From NCBI GenBank assembly GCA_004556155.1, contig SFIM01000038.1:1-26517 (forward strand): a stretch of DNA of 26,517 nt, given 5' to 3'. Position 1 is the first letter of the stretch, and each line of letters starts with the position of its first letter. Shown here one piece after another: positions 1 to 21,943 of this stretch. The translations under genes and the position numbers were made by a program. Below the pieces are notes generated by a model. The model was not told the origin of the DNA. It was given only the letters and a program-made list of their open reading frames with translations, and did no database searches. Source of the stretch: Clostridiales bacterium. Its GTDB lineage: Bacteria; Bacillota; Clostridia; Christensenellales; Aristaeellaceae.

Positions 1-135
1 CTACTGCCTTACGGCAAGCGCGGGTTTCGGGCGGCAATTTACAAAATTGCGCGCCCTCAGCCGCCTGCGGCGGCGCTATGGCTCCAAGAAAGTACCGTAA
101 CCTTCTCGTCTCCTTCGTCTCCCTCGTCCCCTCCG
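1..135. repeat. Partial or interrupted copy of the modular palindromic intergenic repeat (half terminal hairpin plus C-rich outer arm), preceded by other small hairpins
   Basis: 81-103 GCTCCAAGAAAGTACCGTAACC is the right half of the hairpin GGTACTTTCTTGGAGCCCAAGAAAGTACC seen intact at 6578 and 9857. The C-rich tract at 104-135 mirrors the G-rich tracts at 9830, 11781 and 14921. On the minus strand the element starts directly after the araC-type stop codon (136-138). Confidence 0.7.
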
Positions 136-942: not shown

Positions 943-997
943 AAATGCCGCTCCTTCACGATGCAATATAGAGATAATAATCTGCAACGCGCAGATA

Positions 998-1026
998 TTG
1001 CGATTCCCCATTTATTTTACTATACT
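998..1026 (+). promoter_or_regulatory. Candidate sigma-A promoter of melA
   Basis: -35 TTGCGA (998-1003), 17-nt spacer, -10 TATACT (1021-1026). RBS GGAGGA at 1059-1064. Confidence 0.45.
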
Positions 1027-1070
1027 ATGCTTGATGTTGCAACCGATACTACGCATCATGGAGGAAATAT

Positions 1071-2381
1071 ATGCCTAAGATTACATTCATGGGCGCCGGC
1101 TCCAGCGTGTTTGCCAAGAACGTGCTAGGCGACTGCATGACGTCCCCGATCATGGAAAACAGCGAGATTGCCCTCTACGATATCGACGCGGACCGCATGG
1201 ACGACAGCAAGCGCATGCTGGACGCCATCAACAGGAACCTGGGCAACAAGGCCACCATCAAGACCTACCTGGGCGTGGAAAACCGCAAGGAGGCCCTGCG
1301 CGGTGCCAATTACGTGGTCAACGCCATTCAGGTGGGCCTGTACCGCCCCTGCACGGTGACGGACTTTGAAGTGCCCAAGAAGTACGGCCTGCGCCAGACC
1401 ATCGCCGACACCCTGGGCATCGGCGGCATCTTCCGCGCCCTGCGCACCATCCCCGTGATGCAGGACTTTGCCGACGATATGGCCGAGGTGTGCCCCAACG
1501 CCTGGTTCCTCAACTACACCAACCCCATGGCTATGCTGACCGGCTATATGCAGCGCTACACCCCCATCAAGACGGTGGGTCTGTGCCACAGCGTGCAGGT
1601 GTGCGCCAGCCACCTGCTCAAGGGGCTGGATATGCCCTATGACGATACCTATCAGTGGAAGATCGCCGGCATCAACCATCAGGCCTGGCTGCTGGAGATC
1701 CGCGATCCGCAGGGCAACGATCTGTATCCCGAAATCAAGCGCCGCGCGGCCGCGCGCACCGAGAAGCATGACGATATGGTGCGCTATGAGCTGATGAAGC
1801 GCTTTGGCTACTATGTGACCGAATCCAGCGAGCATAATGCTGAATACACGCCGTATTTTATCAAGGACAAGTATCCGGAGCTGATCGAGCGCTTCAACAT
1901 CCCGCTGGATGAGTATCCGCGCCGCTGCATCAAGCATGAGGAAAATTGGGCCACCCTGCGCGTGGAGCTGACCCAGAATGACAAGCTGACCCACGAGCGC
2001 AGCAAGGAATACGCCTGCCACATCATGGAGGCCATGGAAACCAACCAGCCCTACAAGATCGGCGGCAACGTGATCAACACGGGCCTGATCACCAACCTGC
2101 CGCAGAACGCCTGCGTCGAGGTGCCCTGCATTGTGGACAAGAGCGGCGTGACCCCGACCTTTGTGGGCGATCTGCCGGAGCAGTGCGCGGCGCTGAACCG
2201 CACCAACATCAACGTGCAGCTGCTGACTATTGAGGCGGCCAAGACCCTGAAGAAGGATTACATTTATCAGGCCGCACTGATGGATCCGCATCTGCAGAGC
2301 GAGCTGTCCATCGACGACATCGTTTCCCTGTGCGACGACATGATCGAGGCTCACAAGGGCTGGCTGCCGGAGTACAAGTAA
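1071..2381 (+). CDS. melA: Alpha-galactosidase, glycoside hydrolase family 4 (NAD/Mn-dependent)
   Basis: N-terminal KITFMGAGSSVFAKNVLGD Rossmann motif and GLCHSVQ catalytic-region motif. As far as I recall the Bacillus subtilis MelA sequence, the protein is colinear with it through to the shared C-terminus WLPEYK. Confidence 0.9.
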   Translation: MPKITFMGAGSSVFAKNVLGDCMTSPIMENSEIALYDIDADRMDDSKRMLDAINRNLGNKATIKTYLGVENRKEALRGANYVVNAIQVGLYRPCTVTDFEVPKKYGLRQTIADTLGIGGIFRALRTIPVMQDFADDMAEVCPNAWFLNYTNPMAMLTGYMQRYTPIKTVGLCHSVQVCASHLLKGLDMPYDDTYQWKIAGINHQAWLLEIRDPQGNDLYPEIKRRAAARTEKHDDMVRYELMKRFGYYVTESSEHNAEYTPYFIKDKYPELIERFNIPLDEYPRRCIKHEENWATLRVELTQNDKLTHERSKEYACHIMEAMETNQPYKIGGNVINTGLITNLPQNACVEVPCIVDKSGVTPTFVGDLPEQCAALNRTNINVQLLTIEAAKTLKKDYIYQAALMDPHLQSELSIDDIVSLCDDMIEAHKGWLPEYK

Positions 2382-3010
2382 GGGGAGTACGGGGGAACGG
2401 TGGGAACGTTACTTTCTTCAGGGAAGAAAGTAACAAAGAACCTGCGTGTGACGTAAAAGTCAATTGAATTAAGCTGGGAGTGGCCCTGGCCACCTGGCCA
2501 CCCGCCCCCGTGGCAGGGAAAAACTCAAATCGCTCGGTTCGGAGTAAACTCCAACCGGGCGATTCTTCATTTTTCCCCTTCGGTCGTGCTGCGCACGCCC
2601 TGCGCTGATCTGCGATCAGCGTGCCACGGGGGGTGTAGTTGGGTGTGGCGAACAAGCGCAGCGTCTAATGATAGTTGGACAGAATGGCCACCAAAAGGCT
2701 TCTCCTTGAGGAGAGGCTCCGCCGTAGGCGGTGGTGAGGTGTAGGCTACGAAGTAACCGTTGGCAAAGTATTTATAAAGGATAACGCGGCGGCGGCTACA
2801 CCTCATCAGTCAGCTCTCGCTGACAGCTTCTCCTCAAGGAGAAGCCCAGGCTGTCGAAAAAACTTTTTCGACAGCCTGCCGATGCAAGTCAGCTAAAGCA
2901 GACTTGTATCGGGAACGTCATTTTCTTGTGAGCCTGCGGCTCACGGCCAGAAAATGACAAAGGAAGCAGCCTGACGGCTGCTCCTCGCACCGCGCATGTC
3001 GCTGCTCTGC
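2382..3010. repeat. Composite repeat locus: left half of the modular palindrome, inverted central module (2697-2846) and hairpin-train module (2848-3006)
   Basis: G-rich tract at 2382-2407. Terminal hairpin GTTACTTTCTTCAGGGAAGAAAGTAAC at 2408-2434. The arm matches 9886-10075. 2697-2846 is the reverse complement of 10159-10310. 2848-3006 matches 18076-18234 with 4 mismatches. Confidence 0.85.
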
Positions 3011-3050
3011 CGTGCCCTCCCCTGATATTCATTTCACGCTTCACGAAACT

Positions 3051-3110
3051 ATTGTTTCACGTGAAACATTGTGGTAAAGTATAGATACGAAATTGTTTCA
3101 CGTGAAACAT
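3051..3110 (+). promoter_or_regulatory. addA promoter flanked by two identical 16-bp perfect palindromes (candidate operator pair)
   Basis: TGTTTCACGTGAAACA occurs at 3053-3068 and 3094-3109 (19-nt direct repeat ATTGTTTCACGTGAAACAT), with centres 41 bp apart. Candidate -35 TTGTTT (3052-3057), 17-nt spacer, extended -10 TGgTAAAGT (3072-3080). Confidence 0.55.
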
Positions 3111-3125
3111 CAAGGGGGGATCATC

Positions 3126-6100
3126 ATGCCGCAATGGACGCAGGCGCAGCGGGAGGCCATCGACGCGCGCAACAGCGAGCTGCTGGTCAGCGCAGCGGCA
3201 GGCAGCGGCAAGACGGCCGTGCTGGTGGAGCATGTGCTGCAATTGCTGCGCGAGGGCGGGCAGATCAACCGCCTGCTGATTATCACCTTCACCCGTGCTG
3301 CGGCGGCGGAGCTGCGCGAACGCCTGATCGCCGCGCTGGATGCGGAGGCGGCGGGCAACGCGCATCTGCGCCGGCAAATGCTGCTGGCGCGCCGCGCGCA
3401 GATCAGCACGCTGCATGTGTTTTGCCATCGCGTCATTCGCCAGCATTTTCAGGCGGCGGATGTCGATCCCATGGCCAAGGTGGGCGAGAATACCGCGCTG
3501 GAGCCGCTTTTGCAGCGTGCGCTGGATGAAAGCGTGGAGGAGCTGTGCCAGTCCGATTTCCCCGACGCGCAGGCGCTGACCAGCCAGTACCAGGATGCGC
3601 AGATCGTCGAAATGGCGCGTCAGCTATACACCTTCCTGCGCGCGCAGGCCGATCCGGAAGCGTGGCTGAGCCAGCACATGGCCGATCCCGCCGGGGCCGG
3701 GCTTGCGCCCTTCCTGCTGATCCTGCGCAAGGAAGCGCTGCTGTGCCTGGAGGGCGCGGAGCAGCTGAACGATCAATGCCTGCGCCTGCTGGAGCTGCCC
3801 GGCGCGCCCGTGCATCTGCTTCCCACCGCGCAGGCCGATCAGGCGCTGCTGGCCGCTTTGCGCGATGCGCTGCGGCAGGATACCCTGCCTGCGGGCGAAT
3901 TGCGCTTTGCCGTCAAGGCACGCGCGCCCAAGAACGCGGATTTTGACCCCGCGCTGGCCGATCGCTTTACCTCCCTGCGTGACCGCATGAAGGAGCTGGC
4001 CAAGCAGGCGCGCGCCATGGTGCCCGCCGATATCGATCAGGCACGCGCCGAGGTGGCCGCCACCCTGCCCGCTCTGCGCGCGCTGATCGGCCTGGTGCAG
4101 GCCATGGATGCGCGCTATGCGCAGTACAAGCAGGAGAAAAACCTGCTGGATTATGGCGATTTGGAGCATTTGGCCCTCAAGGCGCTGGATGACGCGCAGG
4201 TGCGGCAGAGCGTGGCCGAGGGCTACGATGCGATCTTTGTCGATGAGTATCAGGATGTGTCGGCCATCGAGGAGGCCATCGTCCGCCGCGTGCACAATGA
4301 AAACAACCGTCTGTTCATGGTGGGTGACGTCAAGCAGTCCATTTATCGCTTCCGGCTGGCCGATCCCACGCTGTTTTTGAGCAAATATGAGCAGTTTGGC
4401 AGCGAAAAGAAGGCCGTTTCGCGCCGCATCCTGCTGAGCCGCAATTTCCGTTCGCGCGGCAATATCCTGGCTGCCGTCAACTGCGTGTTTGCCCGCGCCA
4501 TGCGCCGCGGCGCTACCGAGATTGCCTATGACGACGACGCGGCCCTGCACGCGGGGCTGGAAAGCACGGGCGACCCTGCCGTGCAGCTGCATATCATCAA
4601 CGACGATACCCAGGAGCCCGCGCCGGACGCGCAGGAGGAGGGCGACGATGCGGGCGAGGCGCGCAAGGGCTGGATGTACGAGGCGCAGCTGGCCGCGCGG
4701 CTGATCCGCGAGCAGGTGGGCCATCCCATCCGGGATAAGAACGGCGAGCGCGCCCTGCGCTATCGGGATTGCGTGATCCTGCTGCGCTCCGCCAGCGGCC
4801 GCGCGCCGCTGATTGCCAAGATTCTGGCCAGCGAGGGCGTGCCTGCCTACAGCGACGCCGACGCGCAGTATTTTGACCTGCCCGAGGTGCGGGATGTGAT
4901 GAACGTGCTGCGCGTGCTGGACAACCCCTATCAGGATGTGCCGCTGCTCAGCGCCCTGCGCTGCCCGTGCTTTGGCTTCACCAGCGCGCGGCTGGCCGAG
5001 ATCCGCCTGCGCGATGATACGCGGCAAAAGCCCTTCTATCAGGTGTTTTTCGCCCTGCGGGAGCAGGAGGAGGATGTGCGCGCAGCCTGCGAACGGCTGG
5101 ATACATGGCGCTTCTGGGCGCAGCATCTGCCCACCGACCGGCTGCTGTGGCGCATCCTGTCGCAGTCCGGGCTATACGCCCTGGCCGGGGCGCAGCGGGA
5201 TGGCGCGGCGCGGCAGGCCAATCTGCGCCTGCTGTGCGAGCGCGCGCAGGCAGACGGCGCGCGGGCTTCGCTGCATGATTTTCTGTCCGTCAGCGATCTG
5301 GCCAACCGCACGGGCGATGCGGGCGCGGCGCGCGAATTGGGCGAAAACGACGATGTGGTGCGCATCATGACGCTGCACAAATCCAAGGGGCTGGAGTTTC
5401 CGCTGGTCATCCTGATGGAGCTGGCGCGCAATTTCCGCATGCCCTCGGACGGGGAGCTGCTGCGCACCGACGCGCAGGCTGGCCTGGCCCTCAAGCGCGT
5501 GGACGCCGAGCGCCGCGTGACCGGGCACACGGTGGCTGGGCGGGCGCTGGCCTGCAAGCAGGCGCGGCAGATCAAGGCGGAGGAAGCGCGGCTGCTGTAC
5601 GTGGGCATGACCCGCGCGCGGGAGCGGCTGATCCTGCTGTCCTCGCCGCGCAGCATGCAGGGCGTGGCCGAGATGCGCGATATGCCCGAGGGCGATTACG
5701 CGGCGGGCTGCGCGCGCTGCATGCTGGATTGGGTGGTGCAGGCTGTGGGCGAGGGGCTGCGGACGGGGCGCGACACGCTGTTCACGGCGGCCAATGGCAG
5801 CCTGTGGGATCTGCGCTATCATGGCAGCGCGGAGTTCAGTCAGCGCTTACCGCAAGAGGAAAAATTTTTCATTCCGGATTTGTCCGAGCCGCCTTCTGCC
5901 GATTTCTGCGCGCAGATGGCGCGTCCGCCGCGGCAATCGCAGCTGCAAAAGACCAGCGTGACGGCACTTCTGCGCGGCGCGGTCTGGACGGAGGATACCG
6001 AGGAAACGCCCGAAAGCAAGCGAAAAGCGCTGCATTTGGATACGATGCCGCCTGAACTTCCGCCGTTTTTGGCTGGAACGCAGCTATCGGCGGCCGATCG

Positions 6101-6569
6101 CGGCACGGCGGCGCACAAGGCGCTGGGAGCGCTTGATTTGTCCCTGCTGCGCGGCGCGGAGGCTTTGCCGGCAGCAGTGAACGCGCAGCTTGCTGCGCTG
6201 TCGCGTCGCGGCGTGCTGACGGCGGAGGAGCTGGCGGCCATCGATCCCGGCGACATCCTGGCCTTTTTGCGCAGCGATATGGGCGCGCGGATGCTGGCCA
6301 GCCCGCGCGTGCAGCGCGAGTGGGGTTTCTGCCTGCGGGATGGCGATCTGCTGGTGCAGGGCGTGATCGATCTATGCTTCCTCGAAAACGGCGCGTGGGT
6401 GCTGGTGGATTACAAGACCGACCGCTGCCCCGCCGAGGAGCTGCCTGCGATGTACGGCGATCAGCTGCGCTGGTACGCCCGCGCCCTGCGCGAGATCACC
6501 GGCCTGCCGGTGCGGTTTGGCGGGCTGTACAGCCTGCGCCGCCGGACGCTTGTGCCGGTGGAGGTATAA
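3126..6569 (+). CDS. addA: ATP-dependent helicase/nuclease subunit A (AddA/RexA type: UvrD-like SF1 helicase plus C-terminal PD-(D/E)XK nuclease)
   Basis: Start set at MPQWTQAQ (ATG 3126) behind AAGGGGGGA. Walker A AAAGSGKTAVL, DEYQD Walker B, VGDVKQSIYRFR, TLHKSKGLEF and VGMTRAR helicase motifs. C-terminal GVIDLCF...VLVDYKTD RecB-type nuclease motif. Confidence 0.88.
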   Translation: MPQWTQAQREAIDARNSELLVSAAAGSGKTAVLVEHVLQLLREGGQINRLLIITFTRAAAAELRERLIAALDAEAAGNAHLRRQMLLARRAQISTLHVFCHRVIRQHFQAADVDPMAKVGENTALEPLLQRALDESVEELCQSDFPDAQALTSQYQDAQIVEMARQLYTFLRAQADPEAWLSQHMADPAGAGLAPFLLILRKEALLCLEGAEQLNDQCLRLLELPGAPVHLLPTAQADQALLAALRDALRQDTLPAGELRFAVKARAPKNADFDPALADRFTSLRDRMKELAKQARAMVPADIDQARAEVAATLPALRALIGLVQAMDARYAQYKQEKNLLDYGDLEHLALKALDDAQVRQSVAEGYDAIFVDEYQDVSAIEEAIVRRVHNENNRLFMVGDVKQSIYRFRLADPTLFLSKYEQFGSEKKAVSRRILLSRNFRSRGNILAAVNCVFARAMRRGATEIAYDDDAALHAGLESTGDPAVQLHIINDDTQEPAPDAQEEGDDAGEARKGWMYEAQLAARLIREQVGHPIRDKNGERALRYRDCVILLRSASGRAPLIAKILASEGVPAYSDADAQYFDLPEVRDVMNVLRVLDNPYQDVPLLSALRCPCFGFTSARLAEIRLRDDTRQKPFYQVFFALREQEEDVRAACERLDTWRFWAQHLPTDRLLWRILSQSGLYALAGAQRDGAARQANLRLLCERAQADGARASLHDFLSVSDLANRTGDAGAARELGENDDVVRIMTLHKSKGLEFPLVILMELARNFRMPSDGELLRTDAQAGLALKRVDAERRVTGHTVAGRALACKQARQIKAEEARLLYVGMTRARERLILLSSPRSMQGVAEMRDMPEGDYAAGCARCMLDWVVQAVGEGLRTGRDTLFTAANGSLWDLRYHGSAEFSQRLPQEEKFFIPDLSEPPSADFCAQMARPPRQSQLQKTSVTALLRGAVWTEDTEETPESKRKALHLDTMPPELPPFLAGTQLSAADRGTAAHKALGALDLSLLRGAEALPAAVNAQLAALSRRGVLTAEELAAIDPGDILAFLRSDMGARMLASPRVQREWGFCLRDGDLLVQGVIDLCFLENGAWVLVDYKTDRCPAEELPAMYGDQLRWYARALREITGLPVRFGGLYSLRRRTLVPVEV

Positions 6570-6923
6570 GGGGTTACGGTACTTTCTTGGAGCCCAAGAA
6601 AGTACCAAAGAAGGCTGCGTTGTAGACGAAAAAGTCAAATTAATAAAACTGGGAGTGGCCCTTGCCACCTGCCGCCCCGCCCCGTGGCACGCCGATGCAA
6701 TCGGCGCGGGCTAGCGAAGCCAGACCATAGGGGAAATATTCAAGGGAACGGATGGCGCTTGCGCCGATCCGGGCACGCAGAATTTTCCCTGCCACGGGGG
6801 GCGGGTGGCCAGGGCCACTCCCAGTTTTATTCAAGCAGCTTTCACGTCACACACAGATTCTTTGTTACTTTCTTCCCTGAAGAAAGTAACGTTTCCCTCG
6901 TTCCTTCGTCCCCCTATCTCCCG
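6570..6923. repeat. Complete minimal copy of the modular palindromic repeat (about 354 bp imperfect hairpin)
   Basis: Starts at the base after the addA stop (6567-6569). Terminal hairpins at 6578-6606 and 6864-6890. The arms ...AAAACTGGGAGTGGCCCTTGCCACC... and ...GGTGGCCAGGGCCACTCCCAGTTTT... are inverted repeats. C-rich tract at 6891-6923. Confidence 0.85.
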
Positions 6924-6931
6924 AAAAAGGC

Positions 6932-6960
6932 TTGACATTTCGCGCCAAATTGCGTACCAT
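6932..6960 (+). promoter_or_regulatory. Candidate sigma-A promoter of nagB
   Basis: -35 TTGACA (6932-6937), 17-nt spacer, -10 TACCAT (6955-6960), immediately after the repeat ends. Confidence 0.5.
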
Positions 6961-7010
6961 GAAAGCGGTCATAATTTGCTGCGCGGCAGCATATCATAGA
7001 GGTGTTAAGC

Positions 7011-7730
7011 ATGAAAATTATCCGGGATACCCAGCGCAACTGTGCGCGCATGGCGGCGGAGGAATACCGCAAGCTGCTGGGTGAAAATCCGCACTGCGTC
7101 CTTGGCCTGGCCACGGGCTCCACGCCCGAAATGCTCTATGAAGAGTTGGTTGCCCTGTGCAAGGCGGGCAAGCTCTCCTTCAAGGATGTAACCACCTATA
7201 ACCTGGACGAGTATGTGGGCCTGGATGGCTCCCATCCCCAGAGCTACCGCTACTTCATGGACAGCCACCTGTTCAACCTGGTGGATATTGACAAGACCCG
7301 CACGCACGTGCCCTGCGGCGTTGGCGTGACGGACGAGATGGCGGCGCACTACGACGATGAAATCAAGCAGGCCGGCGGCGTGGATCTGCAGCTGCTGGGC
7401 ATCGGCCCCAACGGCCATATCGGCTTTAACGAGCCCGGCACGCCCTGGGACGCAGTTACGCACATCGTGCCCCTGACCGACGCGACCCGCCAGGCCAATA
7501 AGCGCTTCTTCAATTCCATTGACGAGGTGCCCGAAAAGGCTGTGTCCATGGGCATCAAGACCGTGATGCAGTCCCGCAGGATCATCCTGATGGCCTTTGG
7601 CAAGAACAAGGCCCAGGCCGTCAAGGGCATGATCGAGGGCCGCATTGATAACAGCGTGCCCGCCTCCATCCTGCAGCTGCATCCCGACTGCACCGTCTAT
7701 ATTGACGATGACGCCGCGTCCATGCTATAA
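7011..7730 (+). CDS. nagB: Glucosamine-6-phosphate deaminase
   Basis: Start at MKIIRD (ATG 7011) with AGAGG 8 nt upstream. Contains LGLATGSTP, YNLDEYVG and LLGIGPNGHIGFNEPG, which are typical NagB motifs. Confidence 0.9.
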   Translation: MKIIRDTQRNCARMAAEEYRKLLGENPHCVLGLATGSTPEMLYEELVALCKAGKLSFKDVTTYNLDEYVGLDGSHPQSYRYFMDSHLFNLVDIDKTRTHVPCGVGVTDEMAAHYDDEIKQAGGVDLQLLGIGPNGHIGFNEPGTPWDAVTHIVPLTDATRQANKRFFNSIDEVPEKAVSMGIKTVMQSRRIILMAFGKNKAQAVKGMIEGRIDNSVPASILQLHPDCTVYIDDDAASML

Positions 7731-7749
7731 TACAACCGCAAAAAGCCTT

Positions 7750-7788
7750 GCCGCTAAAAGAACAAAAGCCTTTTAGCGGCCATTTTTT
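7750..7788 (+). terminator. Intrinsic terminator or attenuator between nagB and glmM
   Basis: Stem GCCGCTAAAAG (7750-7760) pairs with CTTTTAGCGGC (7770-7780), followed by a TTTTTT tract (7783-7788). Confidence 0.7.
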
Positions 7789-7817
7789 ACTTTTGTGTGA
7801 TGAAAAAGGAGGACAGA

Positions 7818-9167
7818 ATGGGCAAATACTTTGGCACCGACGGCTTCCGCGGCGAAGCCAACCGCGAGCTTACCGCCATGCACGCCTTCCAGCTGGGGCA
7901 GTTTTTAGGCTCCTTTTATGGCAGCCAGGCGCGCCGCGCGCGCGTGGTCATCGGCAAGGATACCCGCGCCTCCGGCTATATGCTGGAGGATGCGCTGTGC
8001 GCAGGGCTTACCTCCGCCGGCGCGGATGCGTATCTTCTGCACGTCACCCCCACGCCCAGCGTGTCCTATGTGGCCCGCACCGAGGGCTTTGACTGCGGCG
8101 TGATGATCAGCGCCAGCCACAATCCCTATTGGGATAACGGGCTCAAGCTTGTCAACGCCCAGGGCGAAAAGATGGAGGACGCGGTGATCGAGCGCGCCGA
8201 GGCGTTTCTGGATGCGGGCGCGTCCGCGCCGCTGGCCACGCGCGAGCGCATCGGCCGCGTGGTGGATCACGCCGCCGGGCGCAATCGCTATATCGGCTAC
8301 CTGATCTCGCTGGCTACGCACTCCTATAAGGGTCTGCGCGTGGGCCTGGACTGCGCCAATGGCTCCACCTGGCAGCTGGCCGAGAGCGTGTTCAAGGCCC
8401 TGGGCGCCGAGGTGACGGTGGTGGGCAATACGCCCAACGGCGAAAACATCAACGTGAACTGCGGCTCCACGCACATTGAAAATTTGCAGCGCCTGGTCAT
8501 CGAGCATGGGCTGGACGTGGGCTTTGCCTTTGACGGCGACGCGGATCGCTGCATCGCCGTGGACGAGCGCGGCCAGGCGGTGGATGGCGACCGCATCCTG
8601 TATTTATACGCCGCCTTCCTGCAAAAGCAGGGGCTGCTGGGCGCGGGGCACGTGGTGACCACCATCATGAGCAATATGGGGCTGTACCGCGCGCTGGACG
8701 CGCTGGGCATCGGCTACGAGCAGACCGACGTGGGCGATAAATACGTGTACGAGCGCATTCAGCAGCGCGGCGACCCGCTGGGCGGCGAGCAGAGCGGGCA
8801 CATCATCTTTGCCAAGTACGCCACCACCGGCGACGGCCTGCTGACGGCCATCAAGGTGATGCAGGCCATGCTGGCGCAAAAGCGCCCGCTGTCCGAGCTG
8901 CACGCGGGCATGGTCAGCTACCCGCAGGTGCTGATCAACGTGCGCGTGGCGGACAAGGCCGCGGCGGCCGCGCATCCGCAGGTAGTGGCGGCGCTGGAGG
9001 CCGCGCGCGCCGGGCTGGGCACGCAGGGGCGCATTCTGCTGCGCAAGAGCGGCACTGAGCCCGTGCTGCGCGTGATGTGCGAGGCCGAGGATGGTGATAT
9101 GGCGCAGCGCGCGGCGGACAGCGTGGCGGCGGCGCTGCGCGACAGCGGCATGGCAGTGGAGGGATAA
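7818..9167 (+). CDS. glmM: Phosphoglucosamine mutase
   Basis: Start at MGKYFGTDGFRG (ATG 7818) behind AAAGGAGG. Active-site SASHNP, FAFDGDADR metal loop and GGEQSGH motifs. Confidence 0.92.
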   Translation: MGKYFGTDGFRGEANRELTAMHAFQLGQFLGSFYGSQARRARVVIGKDTRASGYMLEDALCAGLTSAGADAYLLHVTPTPSVSYVARTEGFDCGVMISASHNPYWDNGLKLVNAQGEKMEDAVIERAEAFLDAGASAPLATRERIGRVVDHAAGRNRYIGYLISLATHSYKGLRVGLDCANGSTWQLAESVFKALGAEVTVVGNTPNGENINVNCGSTHIENLQRLVIEHGLDVGFAFDGDADRCIAVDERGQAVDGDRILYLYAAFLQKQGLLGAGHVVTTIMSNMGLYRALDALGIGYEQTDVGDKYVYERIQQRGDPLGGEQSGHIIFAKYATTGDGLLTAIKVMQAMLAQKRPLSELHAGMVSYPQVLINVRVADKAAAAAHPQVVAALEAARAGLGTQGRILLRKSGTEPVLRVMCEAEDGDMAQRAADSVAAALRDSGMAVEG

Positions 9168-9169
9168 AA

Positions 9170-9829
9170 ATGCTGTACAAGGTCAGCGATCTGTTTGATT
9201 TAACGCATACGCGCGCGGCGGAGCTATTGGAAAAGTGCGAGTATCCGCACGAGGTGCTGCCGCGCATCAAGCCTTTTATTCTGGCGCTGGGCGAAACGCT
9301 GCCCATCAGCGAATTCTTGCATCCTTCGCCCACGGTATGGATTGCGCGCGACGCGGTGGTTGCGCCCACGGCGTGCCTGGGCGAGTGCATCATCATCGAT
9401 CACGGCGCGGAGGTGCGCCACTGCGCCTACATCCGCGGCAGCGCGCTCATTGGCCGCGACGCGGTGGTGGGCAACAGCACGGAGCTGAAAAACGTGATCC
9501 TCTTTGACAACGTGCAGGTGCCGCACTACAACTATGTGGGCGACAGCGTGCTGGGCTACCGAGCGCACATGGGCGCGGGAGCCGTTACCAGCAATGTCAA
9601 GGGCGATCGCCAGCCGGTGGTGGTGCATCGCGGCAGCGAACGCATGGAGACCGGCCTGAAAAAGCTGGGCGCGATGCTGGGCGATTACGCCGAGATCGGC
9701 TGCGGCGCGGTGCTCAACCCCGGCGCAGTCATCGGCCGCGGCGCGCAGGTATACCCCCTGGTCAGCGTTCGCGGCACCGTCCCCGCCAACTGCATCCACA
9801 AGGGCGGCAGCGTTGTGGAGAAGCGGTAA
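9170..9829 (+). CDS. Stand-alone left-handed beta-helix (hexapeptide-repeat) acyltransferase resembling the GlmU C-terminal acetyltransferase domain
   Basis: Starts 2 nt after the glmM stop. Hexapeptide-like repeats (IGRDAVVGNSTELKNVILFDNVQVPHYNYVGDSVLGYRAHMGAGAVTSN ... GDYAEIGCGAVLNPGAVIGRGAQV). No N-terminal nucleotidyltransferase domain. Confidence 0.65.
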   Translation: MLYKVSDLFDLTHTRAAELLEKCEYPHEVLPRIKPFILALGETLPISEFLHPSPTVWIARDAVVAPTACLGECIIIDHGAEVRHCAYIRGSALIGRDAVVGNSTELKNVILFDNVQVPHYNYVGDSVLGYRAHMGAGAVTSNVKGDRQPVVVHRGSERMETGLKKLGAMLGDYAEIGCGAVLNPGAVIGRGAQVYPLVSVRGTVPANCIHKGGSVVEKR

Positions 9830-10628
9830 GGGGGGACGAGGAGACGGGGAGGTTACGGTACTTTCTTGGAGCCCAAGAAAGTACCAAAGAAGGCTGCGTG
9901 TGACGTGAAAGTCAAGCTGATAAAACTGGAAGGCGGCACTGCCGCCCCCCGTGGCAGGGAAAAACTTGAATCGCTCGGTCTGGAGTAAACTCCGCCCGAG
10001 CGATTCTTTATTTTTCCCCTATGGTCTGGCTTCGCCAGCCCTGCGCTGATCTGCGATCAGCGTGCTACGGGGCGTAATTGGGTGCGGGAATTAGACTTAG
10101 CTGATTGCGATCGTTGTGAAGAGAAGCCAAGTTTCTTGAAAATCGCACGACAAAAAAAGCCTTCTCCTTGAGGAGAAGGTGGCGAATGCAGTGAGCCGAA
10201 TGAGGTGTAGCCGCCGAAGCGGCGTAATCCTTATATTGCTTTGATAACGGCTGCTTCGCAGCCTACACCTCACCACCGCCTACGGCGGAGCCTCTCCTCA
10301 AGGAGAAGCCTTTTGGTGAGTGCACCTTTCAACTATCACCAATCGCTGTGCAGAGGTTCCGCAGCTACTCAACACGCCCCCGTGGCACGCCGATTTTAAT
10401 CGGCGCAGGGCTGGCGAAGCCAGACCGAAGGGGAAACATTCAAGTGGACGGATGGCGCTTGCGCCGATCCGGGCACGCAGAATTTTCCCTGCCGCGGGGG
10501 CGGGGCGGCAGTGCCGCCTCCCATTTTAATTCAACTGACTTTCACGTCACACACAGGTTCTTTGTTACTTTCTTCCCTGAAGAAAGTAACGTCCCCCCTT
10601 CGTCCCCCTCCCCTCGTTCCCCGTCCCC
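9830..10628. repeat. Largest, nested copy of the modular palindromic repeat (about 0.8 kb)
   Basis: Starts at the base after the stop at 9827-9829. G-rich tract at 9830-9856. Terminal hairpins at 9857-9885 and 10564-10590. Central module at 10159-10310. C-rich tract at 10591-10628. The left and right arms are imperfect inverted repeats. Confidence 0.88.
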
Positions 10629-10713
10629 TTTTGGGAACCGCCGCGGGCATTGGCAAAACAGTTGAAACATTTTTGTGCATTTATGCAGTGCTTTATTGCG
10701 AGAAAGTTACACT

Positions 10714-11076
10714 TTATCCACACTTTAGGGATAATTTACGGGGAAAAGTTGTGGATAACTTGGACAACAAAGTGGGGATAACTTTCACTATCCACAGCGG
10801 TTTTCCACCGTTAAAATGAAAAATTCAGGAAAATCGGTACTTTTCCCACTTTTTTCGGTGGATAACTATGTGGATAATGTGGATATCTCCCCTTTTGCTG
10901 TGGATATGCACCCATCCATGCAGTGTATACACCCACAGCGGTGGATTTCTGCGCAAATGCCGCCGGTTTTCCCCATCTGTGGGAAGGAACGTGAATATTC
11001 ATGCATATATGATGCATATTCACGCGACGCCGCGCATAGGCTGGTGGGGAAAAGGTGGGGATAAGCATGTGGAAAA
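10714..11076. promoter_or_regulatory. DnaA-box cluster (10 boxes with at most 1 mismatch to TTATCCACA)
   Basis: Perfect boxes: 10714-10722 (+), 10750-10758 (-), 10869-10877 (-). One-mismatch boxes: 10773-10781, 10788-10796, 10857-10865, 10878-10886, 10899-10907, 11056-11064, 11068-11076. An AT-rich stretch at 10801-10856 lies between the box groups. Confidence 0.8.
10992..11021 (+). promoter_or_regulatory. Candidate forespore (sigma-G-like) promoter of cwlD, lying in an inverted repeat
   Basis: TGAATA (10992-10997), 17-nt spacer, CATATTC (11015-11021), compared with the sigma-G consensus GHATR-N17/18-CATxHTA. The same bases form the inverted repeat GTGAATAT...ATATTCAC (10991-11023). Confidence 0.3.
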
Positions 11077-11780
11077 ACCGTGTATTTCTTTTGGGGGCGG
11101 CCGCGCTGGCGCTTTTGGCGATCGTATTTACCCTTTGTCGCAAAACCGTAACACCCTTGCCCCAGCCCGCGCCTGCGTCCACGCCGGCGCCCGGCCCGCT
11201 GACGGGCGTGACCATCTGCGTGGATCCCGGCCACGGCGGCTACGACGGCGGCGCGCGCGGGCAGGCTTCCGGCGCGCTGGAAAAGGACGTCAACCTGGCC
11301 GTGGCGCTGTGCCTGCGCCAGGAGCTACAGGCCGCGGGCGCGCAGGTGATCCTGACCCGCGATACGGACACGGCGCTGGCGGAGGAGGGCGCGCAGCGCA
11401 AGCGGCGCGATCTGCAATACCGCGTGGATGCGGCGCGCGAGGCGCGGCTCTTTCTCTCGATCCACATGAACGAGTATCGCACGCGCGCGGAGTCCGGGCC
11501 GCAGGTGTTTTACCGTGCGGGGCAGGAGGACAGCCGTCTGCTGGCCGGGGCGCTGCAGGCGCAGCTGATTGCGGGGCTGCGTCCTGCGCGCGAGCGCAGC
11601 GCGCACACGGGCGAATACTACCTGCTGGAGCACCTGGACATTCCGGCGGTGCTGGTGGAGTGCGGTTTTCTTTCCAACGCCGCCGAGGAGGCGAAGCTGC
11701 TGGACGCGGGGTATCAGCAGCAGGTGGCGCAGGCCATTTGCGCGGGGGTATGCGATTTTATCCAATTATCGGGGAAGTAG
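11067..11780 (+). CDS. cwlD: N-acetylmuramoyl-L-alanine amidase, CwlD type (germination-specific, Amidase_3)
   Basis: Start at MWKNRVFLLG (ATG 11067), giving 237 aa with an N-terminal TM segment. DPGHGGYDGGA, EKDVNL, RKRRDLQYRV, LSIHMN and VECGFLSN align with my recollection of B. subtilis CwlD. Confidence 0.8.
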   Translation: MWKNRVFLLGAAALALLAIVFTLCRKTVTPLPQPAPASTPAPGPLTGVTICVDPGHGGYDGGARGQASGALEKDVNLAVALCLRQELQAAGAQVILTRDTDTALAEEGAQRKRRDLQYRVDAAREARLFLSIHMNEYRTRAESGPQVFYRAGQEDSRLLAGALQAQLIAGLRPARERSAHTGEYYLLEHLDIPAVLVECGFLSNAAEEAKLLDAGYQQQVAQAICAGVCDFIQLSGK

Positions 11781-12199
11781 GAGGCGAGGGGGGAACGAGG
11801 GGGACGTTACTTTCTTCAGGAAAGAAAGTAACAAAGAACCTGTGTGTGACGTAAAAGTTAATTGGATTAAACTGGAAGGCGGCACTGCCGTTTTGTGCCC
11901 CGTGGCAGGGAAAATTCGCGGGCCCGGATCGGCGCAAGCGCCATCCGTCCCCTTGAATATTTCCCCTATGGTCTGGCTTCGCCAGCCCAAGGGGGAAAGC
12001 AGGAAGCGAACGGAGGAAAGCTTGCTTTCATCCGGGCGGTTCAGGCTTTCACCTGCCACGGGGGCATACAGACGGCCAGGGCCACTCCCAGTTTAAAACC
12101 AGCAGCTTTTCCGTCCACAACACAGGTTCTTTGTTTCTTTCTTGACTCAAGAAAGAAACGTCCCTCCCCCGTCCTCCCTCGTCCCCCTCGTCTCTCTCT
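11781..12199. repeat. Copy of the modular palindromic repeat with mixed arm variants
   Basis: Starts at the base after the cwlD stop (11778-11780). Terminal hairpins at 11806-11832 (GTTACTTTCTTCAGGAAAGAAAGTAAC) and 12133-12159 (GTTTCTTTCTTGACTCAAGAAAGAAAC). C-rich tract at 12160-12199. An inner module is shared, inverted, with 15056-15118. Confidence 0.85.
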
Positions 12200-12224: not shown

Positions 12225-12253
12225 TTTACATTTTCGCAATGCTGTGATAGAAT
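12225..12253 (+). promoter_or_regulatory. Candidate sigma-A promoter of the wall-protein gene
   Basis: -35 TTTACA (12225-12230), 17-nt spacer, -10 TAGAAT (12248-12253) preceded by TGTGA. Confidence 0.5.
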
Positions 12254-12280: not shown

Positions 12281-14866
12281 ATGCGCCGCTTTATCAAGCG
12301 TTTTTTGCCTACTCTGCTCTGCGCGCTGCTGATCGCCCAGGGCGCGCTGGCTTATACCACGCTGCGTCCCGGCGATAAGGGCGCGGATGTGCTGCGCATG
12401 CAGCAGGCGCTGTCCGCGCTGGGCTACACCGTCACATGCGACGGCTCCTTCGGCACGCAAACGTACACCGCCGTCTATAACTTTCAGAACGATTACGGCC
12501 TGAAGGTGGATGGCAAGGCCGGCGATCAAACGCTGACCAAGCTGTACGAATTGTACAACAGCATGTCCACCAAGCCCGGCGGCAGCCAGGGCGGCGCCTC
12601 CACGGGCACGCAGACCCCGCCCGCCACGGTGTATTGCGCCAACGGCGGCAGCCTGAACGTGCGCCGCGGCCCCGGCACCGGCTATGCCGCCTTCTATCAA
12701 ATCCCCAACGGCGCAACGGTGAATGTGCTGGAGCGCGGCAGCAAGTGGTGCCAGATCAGCTACGATTCCACCGTGACTGGCTATGTGATGACCTCCTTCC
12801 TGCGCTTTTCGCAGGATACGCCCGTGGTCACGCCCTCTCCCGATACCAGCATGGAAACGGCCTATGTTTCCTGCGCGGACGGCGGCAGCCTGAACCTGCG
12901 CCAGCGCCCCGTATCGGGCGGGAAGATCCTCACCCGCGTGCCCAACGGCACGCAGCTGCGCGTCACCCGCGTGGATGGCAAGTGGTGCTATACCACCTAC
13001 AACGGCCAGTCGGGCTATGTGATGAGCAGCTTCCTGTATTTCGCCTCCGTCCCCGCGCTGCCCACCCCCACGCCGGTCATCAGCCCCACGCCCGTGCCCC
13101 CCACCGCCGGCAGCGATGCGCTGACCGCCCGCGTGCAGCCCGCCAACGGCGGCAGCCTGAACCTGCGCCAGCGTCCGGCCTCCGGCAATAACGTGATCGC
13201 GCAGATTCCCTACGGCACGGTGCTGAGCGTCACCCGCATCGACGCCACCTGGTGCCTGACCACCTATAACGGCCAGGCCGGCTATGTGATGAGCAAGTTC
13301 CTCACCTTCTACGGCGGCGCGGTCACGCCCACGGCCACCCCCACGCCCAGCGTGAACCCCGGCACCGAGCTGCTGCCGGGCTATGTATACTGCGCCAACG
13401 GCAAAAAGCTGAACCTGCGCTCCGGCCCCGGCCTGACCTACGACGTGCTGTTCAAGATTCCCAACGGCGCGGCCGTCACCGTCACCCAGCGCCTTACCGG
13501 CTGGTACTGCGTATCCTATGAAAGCTATACCGGCTTTGTCAACAGCGATTACATCGTGCTCAGCGGCGGTGCGCCCACCGTGCCCTCCGTGGCCACGCCC
13601 ACGCCCGTGCCCTCCAGCGACAGCACCATCCATTACGGCGAGCTGCGCTACGCCACGGTCAATACGGTGAACAACTCCCTGAACGTGCGCAAGGTCCCCG
13701 GCGGCCGGCAGATCGGCTCCTTCCAGAAGGGCAGCCGCGTGGTGGTATCGCAGATCCTCACCGTGGACGGCGTGGAATGGTGTGCGGCCTATCAGGGTGG
13801 CCTCAGCGGCTATGTGCAGCGCCAGTACCTGGTGCTGGATGCGCGCGTGACCCCCGCCCCCACCACGCCCGACACCGCCTACGACACCTCCATCCTGGTG
13901 CGCAACCTCAAGCTCAACAGCACCGGCGCGGATGTGCGCCTGGTGCAGACGCGCCTGGTGGAGCTGAACTACCTCTCCTCCGCCAACGGCACCTACGACT
14001 CCGCCACGCAGACGGCAGTGAAGCGCTTCCAGCAGCTGCACGGCCTGAGCCAGGATGGCGTGGCCGGCCCCAACACGTTTAAGCTGCTGTTCTCCTCCAC
14101 GGCGCTGCCTTACAGCACCGAGGCCTCCAACTACACCAGCTACCTGATCGACTATAACGAATCGGCCAACGAGGTGCGCACCAAGGCCATTCAGCGCGCG
14201 CAGCTGGCGCTATCCAACCTGAACTACAACGTGGCGACCGACGGCAAATTCAACGAGGCCATGCACGACGCGCTGGTTGCCTTCCAGCTGCGCAACGGCA
14301 TCACGGCCACGGGCGTGCTGGATGCGGCCACGCAGGCGCGCCTGTACTCCGGCAAGGCCAACGACGCGGCCACCGCGCCGCGCGAATACCTGGCCGATAA
14401 CGCGGGCTACACGGCCAATCCGCCCAAGGCCAGCGATGTAAAGCTGCTGCACTGGTACAACACGGTCAAGCCCATGATGAGCAGCGGCACGGCCTTTACG
14501 GTATACGATCCCGACAGCGGCTTATCCTGGAAGCTGCAGGTGCTTTCGCCCGGCCGTCACTGCGACAGCCAGCCCGTCACCCTGCAGGATACGCTGATCA
14601 TGCAGAAGGCCTTTGACGGCAAGAGCAGCTGGAACATGCACATCGTCTATGTGCAGCTGCCCAACGGCACCTGGTGCATGGCCGGCATGCACAACCGCCC
14701 GCACCAGAGCAACGGCATCCTGGGCAACGGCTTCGGCGGCCATCTGTGCGTGCACTTCCTGCGCGATATGGACGAGACCAAGAAGGCCGATCCTGTGACC
14801 GGCGTGCAGTATCAGAACCTGCTGCGCGACGCCTGGTACAACCTGACCGGCGAAAAGATCAACTAA
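12281..14866 (+). CDS. Secreted cell-wall-binding protein: signal peptide, PG_binding_1 domain, five SH3b repeats with Pro/Thr linkers, two more PG_binding_1 domains, and an unassigned C-terminal domain
   Basis: Start at MRRFIKRFLPTLLCALLIAQGALA (ATG 12281) behind AAAGGGGG. Five repeats of the type GGSLNLRQRP..G..I..IP.G..L.V.....WC.TTYNGQ.GYVMS.FL. PG-binding motifs occur three times (YTVTCDGSFGTQTYTAVYNFQNDYGLKVDGKAG and two later copies). Confidence 0.8.
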   Translation: MRRFIKRFLPTLLCALLIAQGALAYTTLRPGDKGADVLRMQQALSALGYTVTCDGSFGTQTYTAVYNFQNDYGLKVDGKAGDQTLTKLYELYNSMSTKPGGSQGGASTGTQTPPATVYCANGGSLNVRRGPGTGYAAFYQIPNGATVNVLERGSKWCQISYDSTVTGYVMTSFLRFSQDTPVVTPSPDTSMETAYVSCADGGSLNLRQRPVSGGKILTRVPNGTQLRVTRVDGKWCYTTYNGQSGYVMSSFLYFASVPALPTPTPVISPTPVPPTAGSDALTARVQPANGGSLNLRQRPASGNNVIAQIPYGTVLSVTRIDATWCLTTYNGQAGYVMSKFLTFYGGAVTPTATPTPSVNPGTELLPGYVYCANGKKLNLRSGPGLTYDVLFKIPNGAAVTVTQRLTGWYCVSYESYTGFVNSDYIVLSGGAPTVPSVATPTPVPSSDSTIHYGELRYATVNTVNNSLNVRKVPGGRQIGSFQKGSRVVVSQILTVDGVEWCAAYQGGLSGYVQRQYLVLDARVTPAPTTPDTAYDTSILVRNLKLNSTGADVRLVQTRLVELNYLSSANGTYDSATQTAVKRFQQLHGLSQDGVAGPNTFKLLFSSTALPYSTEASNYTSYLIDYNESANEVRTKAIQRAQLALSNLNYNVATDGKFNEAMHDALVAFQLRNGITATGVLDAATQARLYSGKANDAATAPREYLADNAGYTANPPKASDVKLLHWYNTVKPMMSSGTAFTVYDPDSGLSWKLQVLSPGRHCDSQPVTLQDTLIMQKAFDGKSSWNMHIVYVQLPNGTWCMAGMHNRPHQSNGILGNGFGGHLCVHFLRDMDETKKADPVTGVQYQNLLRDAWYNLTGEKIN

Positions 14867-14883
14867 AAACCCTGGCATATGCC

Positions 14884-14918
14884 GCGCCCCCTTCGCTGTG
14901 AAGGGGGCGCGCGCTTTT
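14884..14918 (+). terminator. Intrinsic terminator
   Basis: Stem GCGCCCCCTT (14884-14893) pairs with AAGGGGGCGC (14901-14910), then GCGCTTTT. Confidence 0.75.
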
Positions 14919-14920
14919 AT

Positions 14921-15142
14921 GGGGGAGGACGGGGGGACGGGGGAGAGACGGTACTTTCTTGAGTCAAGAAAGTACCAAAGAACCTGTGTTGTGAACGGGA
15001 AAGCTGCTGGTTTTAAACTGGGAGTGGCCCTGGCCACCTGCCGCCCCGCCCCCGTGGCAGGTGAAAGCCTGAACCGCCCGGATGAAAGCAAGCTTTCCTC
15101 CGTTCGCTTCCTGCTTTCCCCCTTCGTCTCCCCCGTCCTCTC
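14921..15142. repeat. Half copy of the modular palindromic repeat
   Basis: G-rich tract at 14921-14949. Terminal hairpin GGTACTTTCTTGAGTCAAGAAAGTACC at 14950-14976. One arm plus one inner module, and a C-rich tract ending about 15142. There is no second terminal hairpin. Confidence 0.8.
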
Positions 15143-15189
15143 TTTTACACTTTGCCAAATTTGTCCATACACGGCGAGAAGATTGTACG

Positions 15190-18042: not shown

Positions 18043-18337
18043 AAGCGTTCCTGAGCAAATGGCTCAGGACGCTTCAGGCTGTCGAAAAACCTTTTTCGAC
18101 AGCCTGACGATGCAAGTCAGCTAAAGCGGACTTGCATCGGGAACGTCATTTTCTTGTGAGCCTGCGGCTCACGGCCAGAAAATGACAAAGGAAGCAGCCT
18201 GACGGCTGCTCCTCGCACCGCGCATGTCGCTGCTATATGAAGGGGCTGCGGCCCCTTCATGCATCCCAAGAGTTTAAGCGAGACTTTTTTAACAATCTGA
18301 AGCGTTCCTGAGCAAATGGCTCAGGACGCTTTTTTAT
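18043..18337. repeat. Hairpin-train module (18076-18234) plus extra hairpins, flanked by a 32-bp direct duplication of a terminator hairpin
   Basis: AAGCGTTCCTGAGCAAATGGCTCAGGACGCTT occurs at 18043-18074 and 18300-18331. The interior contains the hairpins AGGCTGTCGAAAAACCTTTTTCGACAGCCT, GATGCAAGTC..GACTTGCATC, CGTCATTTTCT..AGAAAATGAC, GCAGCCTGACGGCTGC and GAAGGGGCTGCGGCCCCTTC. 18076-18234 is about 97% identical to 2848-3006. Confidence 0.85.
18300..18337 (+). terminator. Intrinsic terminator (second copy of the duplicated hairpin, the one that keeps the T-tract)
   Basis: Stem AGCGTTCCTGAGC pairs with GCTCAGGACGCT, followed by TTTTTT (18331-18336). Confidence 0.7.
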
Positions 18338-21595: not shown

Positions 21596-21943
21596 TGGTG
21601 GAGGCGAGGGGAATCGAACCCCTGTCCGAAGACCGAATTACAGGATTTTCTCCGAGCGCAGGACGCATTTTGGATTTCCCTTGCCCCAGCGCCTGCGAAC
21701 GGGCTATGGGGCTTGGTAGCTTCATTTTACCGGCCTCGCCGCAAAGCTTAGGCGGGCCTGTTCCTCACATCAATGACGCTGCTTGCCAAAGCCGTGAGCG
21801 CTTTGGGGCAACGCGCAGCCATTAGGCCGCGAAAGCGTAACTGTTATTGTCAGTTAATTTTAATTTCCCCGTTTTTACGAGGCCAGGGTCCTCGGCTCGC
21901 TTATCCTGTCCTTCGCCATCCCCGTCGAAACCAGAACGCCCCC
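21596..21943 (-). ncRNA. ssrA: tmRNA (transfer-messenger RNA)
   Basis: On the minus strand the RNA reads 5' GGGGGCGUUCUGGUUUCGACGGGG ... GGACAGGGGUUCGAUUCCCCUCGCCUCCACCA 3'. The acceptor stem has the G3:U pair. The internal tag frame GAC AAU AAC AGU UAC GCU UUC GCG GCC UAA encodes ...DNNSYAFAA-stop. smpB lies directly upstream. Confidence 0.95.

Follow-up and report, generated by a model that had tools for sequence, protein, structure and literature searches.

Genes and repeat copies in the window

We analyzed the intergenic repeats in a 26,517-nt stretch of DNA from a Clostridiales bacterium (contig SFIM01000038.1), referred to here as the window. The repeats are six copies (a to f) of a non-coding, modular inverted-repeat element of the miniature inverted-repeat transposable element (MITE) or repetitive extragenic palindrome/bacterial interspersed mosaic element (REP/BIME) type. 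The six loci were read directly in the sequence, genes were taken from the list of open reading frames (ORFs), and gene identities were confirmed with Pfam. In five of the six copies, a G-rich array begins at the first nucleotide (+1) after a TAA, TAG, or TGA stop codon. The preliminary description of the window had pointed to this zero spacing, and the coordinates of all five loci bear it out (Table 1). The array of the sixth copy (f), from 14921, is preceded by an intrinsic terminator and not by a stop codon. The outer edge of the array rests on bases required by the neighbor, namely a stop codon, the final T of a terminator, or a position just beyond a Shine-Dalgarno (SD) sequence. The recorded start of the cwlD gene is the ATG at 11067, not the GTG at 11055. 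Exact matches of the window proteins occur in hundreds of human-gut metagenome contigs and also in NCBI metagenome-assembled genomes of Clostridiales or Eubacteriales, among them a 3.33-Mb contig (proteins MCI5766483.1, MCI5765433.1, and others).

Table 1. Genes, element copies, and adjoining signals in the window.
Feature	Positions	Strand	Remarks
Copy a, half of terminal hairpin and inserted module	1-96	-	Hairpin half 81-96; ~100-nt module (1-80) in its loop; copy cut by window start
Copy a, G-rich array	97-135	-	+1 after TGA of AraC-type gene
AraC-type gene	136-1011	-	TGA stop 138-136
melA (GH4)	1071-2381	+	TAA stop 2379-2381
Copy b, G-rich array	2382-2408	+	+1 after melA TAA
Copy b, terminal hairpin, left arm, and body	2409-2640	+	Hairpin 2409-2433; further repeat modules to about 3030
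AddA gene (addA)	3093-6569	+	TAA stop 6567-6569
Copy c, G-rich array	6570-6578	+	+1 after addA TAA; shortest array, one unit (GGGGTTACG)
Copy c	6578-6914	+	Left hairpin 6578-6606, body, right hairpin 6866-6889, C-rich array 6890-6914
TTGACA -35 of gene downstream of copy c	6932
LbH/hexapeptide gene	9170-9829	+	TAA stop 9827-9829
Copy d, G-rich array	9830-9857	+	+1 after LbH-gene TAA
Copy d	9857-10628	+	Left hairpin, body with nested inner module (about 10100-10330), right hairpin 10566-10589, C-rich array 10590-10628, then TTTT
Amidase_3 (cwlD-like) gene	11067-11780	+	TAG stop 11778-11780, native (element-free orthologue L254 ends GK-TAG)
Copy e, G-rich array	11781-11806	+	GAGGCG AGGGGGGAACG AGGGGGACG; +1 after cwlD TAG
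Copy e, left terminal hairpin	11807-11831	+	TTACTTTCTT-CAGGA-AAGAAAGTAA, then conserved CAAAGAA
Copy e, body	11832-12132	+	Nested inverted-repeat modules
Copy e, right terminal hairpin	12133-12159	+	GTTTCTTTCTT-GACTC-AAGAAAGAAAC
Copy e, C-rich terminal array	12159-12199	+	Four units; ends ~25 nt before -35 of next gene's promoter (12225-12253)
Intrinsic terminator of SH3/PG-binding gene	14883-14919	+	Kept; gene stop 14864-14866; copy f array starts 1-2 nt past T-run
Copy f	14921-15143	+	G-rich array 14921-14950, hairpin 14950-14976, shortened body, C-rich array ~15117-15143; right hairpin absent

Structure of the element

Alignment of the nine arms in the window gave a conserved core consisting of ACG, then a 10-bp hairpin, (T/G)TACTTTCTT-loop-AAGAAAGTA(A/C), then CAAAGAA, inward of which nested inverted-repeat modules continue. 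The foot of the hairpin reads ACG followed by TTAC or GTAC. Outside this foot the copies lose homology and carry a purine array of imperfect ACG-ended units (R5-7ACG, ~9 nt). The spacing between successive CG dinucleotides in the arrays has a mode of 9 and is mostly 8-10. The usual array consists of 1-5 units over 13-69 nt, and a single array reaches about ten. The array is G-rich on entering the element and C-rich on leaving it, and the C-rich end is the complement of the same array type rather than an exact mirror copy of the G-rich end. Left and right hairpins are mutually inverted, complete elements measure 117-830 nt from hairpin to hairpin, and 191 arms are present in 0.8 Mb of related contigs. 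With terminal inverted repeats, a length under about 1 kb, no coding sequence, and multiple copies, the element has the attributes of a MITE. Because it is an inverted repeat that reads from G-rich to C-rich on both strands, a G-rich arm will always be met on the sense strand, and only the zero spacing is informative.

The RNA of the entire intergenic region is predicted to fold into one long hairpin whose first pair lies on the last base of the stop codon (z = -15 for copy e and z = -11 for copy c), in agreement with the earlier suggestion that the G-rich arm can pair with the C-rich arm. The same description had placed a C-rich tract of the opposite arm, CCCCTCCCCTCGTTCCCC, at 10606-10623; the tract is C-rich as described, and its actual position is 10605-10622, one base off. 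Each half of the element has a short GC-rich hairpin followed by TTTTAT or TTTTAA (6803-6830 and 10502-10530 on the plus strand, 9950-9918 on the minus strand), so that a terminator-like signal faces transcription from either side. A terminator scan flagged these inner modules, with a total over the scan of 19 versus 14.6 in shuffles, that is, not above shuffles. Only some copies have a T-run after the outer stem (TTTT at 10629 and at about 15144).

Searches of Rfam at gathering and permissive thresholds with the window, the related loci, and the loci from other phyla returned no family for the element. An inner module, CTGGAAGGCGGCACTGCCGCCCCCCGTGGCAGGGA (9926-9986, with equivalents in other copies), resembles the KDPG-aldolase RNA (RF03115) in a hairpin plus CCCxGUGGCAGGG, at 22.5 bits against a gathering threshold of 54.6. 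This is below threshold and is a lead rather than membership; the RF03115 motif may derive from a related repeat.

Several other repeat modules were observed in or near the copies. A ~100-nt module (CATAGCGCCGCCGCAGGCGGCTGAGGGCGCGCAATTTTGYAAATTGCC...GGGGCGTAC) interrupts the terminal hairpin within its loop at 10 or more sites (window 1-80; locus L121, 1721-1825; and loci L134, L140, L164, L169, L201, L211, L212, and L214). Together with the hairpin stem it is predicted to fold into a three-arm, cloverleaf-like structure (z = -6), and it has no Rfam match. Copy a, which holds this module in its hairpin loop, is therefore interrupted and not truncated. An 80-nt module with GCCTTCTCCTTGAGGAGAAGG hairpins is nested in copies b and d in inverted orientation (2689-2768 versus 10239-10318, 94% identical). 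Furthermore, a 160-nt direct repeat (2847-3006 versus 18075-18234, 98% identical) belongs to a separate repeat family with its own hairpins (CAGGCTGTCGAAAAAACTTTTTCGACAGCCTG).

Distances in related gut-metagenome DNA

We performed an arm-specific pattern scan of metagenomes, which gave 117 loci; together with ten CwlD loci these amount to about 0.8 Mb. Each array was delimited by extension from the hairpin foot, and orthologous sites were clustered, leaving 68 distinct arm sites, each flanked by 450 nt or more. Arrays lying no more than 2 nt from the stop of an ORF with 120 codons or more were assigned to a stop-abutting class. The sample consists of metagenome contigs, often ending at these repeats, and is not a single-genome census.

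The stop-abutting class holds 29 of the 68 sites, of which 26 lie at 0 nt, two at 1 nt, and one at 2 nt, and all three stop codons are used. The preliminary description had judged the zero spacing unlikely to be neutral and had suggested tabulating the distance from element end to stop; in these contigs the distances peak at 0 nt, which is the value at 26 of the 45 arms that face a gene 3' end (binomial p = 4e-15 against a generous expectation of 10%). Zero spacing is therefore real and non-random, and it extends well beyond the window. More arms face 3' ends than 5' ends (45 versus 23, p = 0.01).

Tight abutment is not limited to stop codons. About 16 of the 68 arrays start 0-5 nt past the T-run of an intrinsic terminator (nine found automatically, about seven by eye). 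Another 13 are separated by 13-25 nt from a divergent gene's start codon, a distance that puts them 1-6 nt beyond the SD sequence of that gene. The remaining arm sites face promoters.

Arrays that abut stops are also shorter than the others (median 27 versus 37 nt, p = 4e-6). The degenerate, T-containing outer part found in the other classes is missing from them, a difference in T content that comes partly from the class definition. The genes that they abut have purine-rich ends. We compared gene ends using a greedy, non-overlapping gene set from the same contigs, and the purine fraction of the last six coding nucleotides was 0.81 in array-abutted genes (n = 22), against 0.565 in genes with no element downstream (n = 346, p = 6e-7) and 0.55 in genes where the element follows a terminator (n = 19, p = 4e-4). 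Further upstream, the purine fraction is about 0.51 in all three classes. The purine-rich last codons are ancestral in the LbH gene and cwlD.

Nothing supports the SD-like, post-termination ribosome function that had been proposed for the purine tracts. No GGAGG, AGGAG, or GAGGA core is present in 13 of the 29 stop-abutting arrays, only one of the 29 has a start codon at SD spacing (4-10 nt), and the lengths of left and right arrays vary independently between strains. We rejected a reading of the tract as an SD sequence with a start codon or small ORF on the first two counts. The GGAGG and GAGG motifs noted earlier are present, but the GGAGG at cwlD borrows the G of TAG. Such SD-like motifs follow from base composition.

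Stop codons with and without the element

Comparison of orthologous C-termini with and without the element, as the preliminary description had suggested, indicates that cwlD, the LbH gene, and melA have native stops. The window cwlD product ends in ...LSGK-TAG, and an element-free CwlD orthologue (L254/L255, 63% identical) ends in ...LRGK-TAG with an intrinsic terminator 10 nt further on. More than 100 LbH orthologues (66-100% identity, 218-219 aa) end in ...IVEKR at the same position. The element-free LbH orthologues (L256, 88%; L258, 78%; L261, 70%) have the stop, a spacer of 8-20 nt, and then an intrinsic terminator. The end of melA coincides with the end of many GH4 homologues. The three stops are thus ancestral, and the native spacer and terminator have been lost at the element-bearing sites. 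The native terminator is absent at the window stop-class sites that we checked (copies c, d, and e).

The boundary between array and gene is nevertheless mobile, and in relatives the array invades the gene end. A CwlD relative that is 73% identical (L250) ends in LS-AEEE-TGA, with the array directly next. In another CwlD orthologue (P0009, in L248/L249), no stop precedes the array, and the ORF continues through array and hairpin (...GRDEGDEGEERTKENVTFLSQE...) and beyond; the protein has 298 aa versus 237 aa, with a Gly/Asp/Glu-rich tail encoded by the repeat. At two sites the stop codon itself differs between strains (TGA/TAA and TAG/TAA), with 0-4 differences in 150 nt of coding flank.

Array differences between strains

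At one and the same site (melA, cwlD, the LbH gene, and others) with near-identical flanking genes, strains vary in array sequence, unit number, hairpin-loop subtype, and inner modules. The arrays are the fastest-changing part of the locus. For example, the C-rich array of copy e has one unit more in the window than the three found in most other strains. Left and right arrays are unmatched in length or sequence, and their independent variation counts against a finely tuned stem. We found no target-site duplication in the flanks of 13 complete elements, nor any common flank motif; on the left, the elements are flanked by TAA, TAG, TGA, T-runs, or SD complements. Empty sites were seen only in the more distant orthologues.

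Gene order also differs at these repeats. In other strains of the same species (L121-L127 compared with window 1-11100), melA(-)-araC(+) lies directly upstream of cwlD, and the copy d body adjoins the array and hairpin from the AraC side. A rearrangement with breakpoints in the repeat hairpins therefore separates the strains.

A related hairpin in other phyla

A 17-mer scan of genome contigs gave 120 loci, mostly chance matches, and revealed a hairpin shared across phyla. The hairpin TTACTTTCTT-loop-AAGAAAGTA(A/C) with CAAAGAA stands at the ends of short inverted-repeat elements in candidate phyla radiation (CPR) bacteria, Bacteroidota, Selenomonadaceae, and low-GC phage contigs (genome contigs L013, L038, L066, L080, L096, and L107; viral contigs L265 and L266). 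These elements have unrelated interiors, and they have neither a G-rich array nor zero spacing to stops.

No autonomous insertion sequence (IS) sharing the ends of the window element was found in the window, L121-L247, or the viral contig scan, and no long ORF-bearing element among 31 arm pairs. Arm pairs more than 1 kb apart were considered as candidate autonomous copies and rejected, as they are neighboring elements that flank ordinary genes.

Possible origins of the zero spacing

We tentatively favor a reading in which the zero spacing is a boundary-of-constraint effect, a side effect of the way the repeat ends evolve and not a ribosome signal; it seems to us nearly as apt to be right as wrong. 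Three processes would erase unconstrained flanking DNA until purifying selection stops them. The first would be array turnover, by gain and loss of units and by gene conversion among the many copies. The second would be deletion at microhomology shared by the purine array and purine-rich gene ends, and the third the stimulation of such deletions by the long palindrome. Long palindromes promote deletions of this kind. In a gene with purine-rich last codons, the deletion junction would fall on the stop and remove the native spacer and terminator, and the stop codon would blend into the array because it consists of a T and two purines. The element could then provide termination or 3'-end protection through its giant hairpin, within which lie the inner modules of a GC hairpin plus a T-run.

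Turnover, deletion, and selection would together account for zero spacing, loss of terminators, purine-rich gene ends, and the shorter, cleaner arrays at stops, which are expected because the deletion end-point would lie inside the array. They would also explain the occasional rewriting of last codons or stop and the equal abutment on terminators and SD sites. The tightness with which all three kinds of boundary (stop, terminator T-run, and SD) are approached argues for this reading, as do the hairpin relatives in low-GC phyla, which have neither the array nor the zero spacing. Further support comes from the strain differences in arrays, hairpin subtype, and inner modules at a given site, from the failure to find a target-site duplication or common flanking target, and from the 13 stop-abutting arrays without an SD core and the single one with a start codon at SD spacing. 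However, a number of points weigh against it. The order of events had to be inferred. Exact zero at 26 of 29 sites is very sharp for drift plus selection, and the association with purine-rich ends fits a target preference equally well. Purine microhomology cannot explain the abutment on T-runs, for which a second process or an insertion preference is needed. Among the fetched loci there was no intermediate state, fresh insertion, or same-species empty site, every same-species copy of a site being filled. Finally, the distances were taken from metagenomic contigs, in which assembly often breaks at these repeats, rather than from a single complete genome.

That same sharpness speaks for targeted insertion, in which an enzyme recognizing the terminal hairpin (HUH- or RAYT-like, or other) would mobilize the element to gene 3' ends. 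The preferred site would be just after purine-rich gene ends and stops, or after terminator T-runs, and the array would be made or carried at insertion. We regard this as rather unlikely, though several observations fit it: the excess of 3'-facing arms, the purine-rich ends of the abutted genes, and the presence of different element subtypes at the same site in different strains. Conservation of the terminal hairpin across phyla is expected of a protein recognition site, and the specific insertion of a second module into the hairpin loop indicates that hairpins are targets in this genome. However, three unrelated types of boundary are used, and neither a target-site duplication nor a shared flank motif accompanies them. 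A simple insertion would leave the native terminator on its far side, where it is absent at the window stop-class sites. No transposase-bearing copy is present in the 0.8 Mb, and in relatives the boundary shifts into the coding sequence. The insertion preference at stops that the preliminary description had offered may thus survive in this form, but not for stop codons as such, because arrays abut terminator T-runs and neighboring SD sites just as tightly.

A selected RNA function is a further explanation, which we consider doubtful. The element would be transcribed as 3' untranslated or intercistronic RNA, its G and C arrays closing a giant stem that starts from the stop codon, and the spacing of zero would be under selection because a terminating ribosome has to be placed on the base of the stem. 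Its benefit might be protection of the mRNA from 3' exonucleases, as with REP/BIME, or termination through the inner modules of a GC hairpin plus U-run. It might also be the coupling or uncoupling of the next gene's translation, since the CCUCC-rich array adjoins the SD sequence of that gene. The predicted element-wide hairpin from the last base of the stop is consistent with such a role, as are the loss of native terminators at stop-class sites, the conserved positions of the terminator-like inner modules, and the intercistronic copies whose C array lies 1-6 nt from the next SD. Liang and Deutscher reportedly found in 2015 that REPs within 15 nt of a stop lower translation via trans-translation, which we also count in its favor. 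We likewise count PMC4824070, which describes hairpins within a few bases of the stop as masked by the terminating ribosome. However, the arrays evolve faster than anything nearby and are unmatched from left to right, varying independently between strains. Abutment is equally tight after terminators, where no ribosome arrives, and the terminator scan as a whole did not exceed its shuffles.

A broader proposal joins parts of these explanations, and we think it improbable. The terminal hairpin, found from CPR to Bacteroidota, Firmicutes, and phage contigs, would mark undescribed, widespread, hairpin-recognizing mobile elements. In a high-GC gut lineage, self-built ~9-nt arrays would home to the first base after a stop or terminator T-run and replace native terminators, and the stem from the stop codon would act as a translation-sensed RNA switch between neighboring genes.

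A very improbable alternative is that the array is a simple-sequence repeat that forms G-quadruplexes, in the manner of the GGGNATC arrays in Xanthomonas and Nostoc. Array properties do match those described in PMC4692102: short G-rich units, a unit number that varies between close relatives, and a position after stops on the coding strand and ahead of ORFs on the non-coding strand, with overlap of the stop in some cases. However, four runs of at least three G (G3+N1-7 x4) are present in only 14 of the 68 arrays and in two of the 29 at stops, the usual number of G-runs is 2-3, and a duplex is favored because the arrays are paired with a complementary C array.

That the element supplies the stop codon or cuts the gene short is likewise very improbable. 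In its favor, the identity of the stop changes between strains at two sites, the L250 gene ends in another purine-rich tail (AEEE) with TGA, the L248 ORF meets no stop ahead of the array, and a T within a purine array yields a stop with probability 3/4. However, the position of the stop is ancestral in cwlD, the LbH gene, and melA, and their conserved C-termini refute the acquisition of the stop from the element, as earlier suggested, for these three genes.

Implications and other features of the window

In this uncultured gut bacterium, a selfish or semi-domesticated repeat would thus fill every unconstrained intergenic base. If it occupies all such bases, its edges map the stop, the terminator end, and the ribosome-binding site at single-base resolution. 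The loci are also a case of native terminators replaced by repeat elements, and the remodeling of C-terminal tails and stop codons by a low-complexity array is a route to new protein tails. For annotation, the arrays are a warning that a purine tract behind a stop may resemble an SD sequence through its base composition. Assemblies break at the repeats, which also mark synteny breakpoints between strains, a point of relevance to metagenome binning and strain tracking.

We also observed several features of the window apart from the element. Between copy d and cwlD, positions 10714-10907 lie in an AT-rich stretch and hold a cluster of eight DnaA-box-like sites, three of them perfect (TTATCCACA). 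DnaA-box matches in the window number 14 versus 2.25 expected, most of them within 10714-10907, a region that may represent an origin or a cluster of DnaA boxes. Upstream of addA are two perfect 16-bp palindromes, TGTTTCACGTGAAACA, at 3053-3068 and 3094-3109. The palindrome also occurs upstream of addA in a species with a 78%-identical LbH protein (L258/L260, about 2200-2500), and TGTTTCACGTGAAACA is likely a regulator operator. A tmRNA gene is located at 21596-21943 on the minus strand (Rfam, 191 bits), with the tag peptide DNNSYAFAA. The gene for the SH3/PG-binding cell-wall protein contains four tandem coding repeats of about 250 nt (12621-13430), which are SH3_3 domain repeats.

Comparison with known systems

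A literature search with the sequence string and keywords found no description of this element family, only analogues. The proteobacterial REP/BIME and REPIN families, mobilized by REP-associated tyrosine transposases (RAYTs), are alike in having many extragenic copies, inverted palindromic hairpin units, and a mosaic, modular build. They are likewise enriched at gene 3' ends and between cistrons and serve as targets of other insertion elements, and they have known roles in mRNA 3' protection and, near stops, in lowered translation. However, the foot of the present element is ACG plus TTAC or GTAC, without the GTAG of REP and REPIN. Unlike the adjacent hairpins of REPINs, its hairpins lie 117-830 nt apart, with R5-7ACG arrays outside them. 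Its spacing to the stop is exactly zero, whereas REPs lie merely within about 15 nt. Its host is a high-GC Clostridiales species, and no RAYT gene was identified in the contigs examined.

Bacterial MITEs (Correia/CREE, RUP, BOX, MITEAba12, and TIMEs) are similarly short, non-coding, and multicopy with long terminal inverted repeats. They too form long RNA hairpins, carry possible promoter or terminator signals, and promote rearrangements. In contrast, no target-site duplication or cognate IS was found for the present element, and its ends are variable low-complexity arrays rather than the fixed termini of terminal inverted repeats. PATE, which derives from IS200/IS605, and other HUH-hairpin elements share conserved subterminal hairpins, the absence of a target-site duplication, and a motif at the foot (here ACG | T/G TAC). 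Unlike PATE, the present element has ends that are symmetric inverted repeats, with no constant tetra- or pentanucleotide at the left end, and no TnpA or TnpB gene was seen.

In Xanthomonas and Nostoc, arrays of GGGAATC or GGGGA(C/T)T heptamers are found on the coding strand within 0-50 bp after stops, which some of them overlap (PMC4692102). Close relatives differ in the number and sequence of their units at a given intergenic site, inverted pairs exist, the function is unknown, and no link to mobile elements was reported (PMC4692102). Tandem G-rich units of 6-9 nt, a number that varies between close relatives, and a coding-strand position near stops are shared with the arrays described here. 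The latter differ in that their units are ~9 nt and imperfect, are attached to a hairpin-bounded inverted repeat, and show no preference for four G-runs. Finally, the mycobacterial interspersed repetitive units (MIRUs) are alike in being intercistronic, with ends that touch the flanking stop and start signals and with a variable number of tandem units. However, MIRU units are 46-100 bp long with short ORFs for translational coupling, whereas those of the present element are ~9 nt, non-coding, and set within a palindrome.

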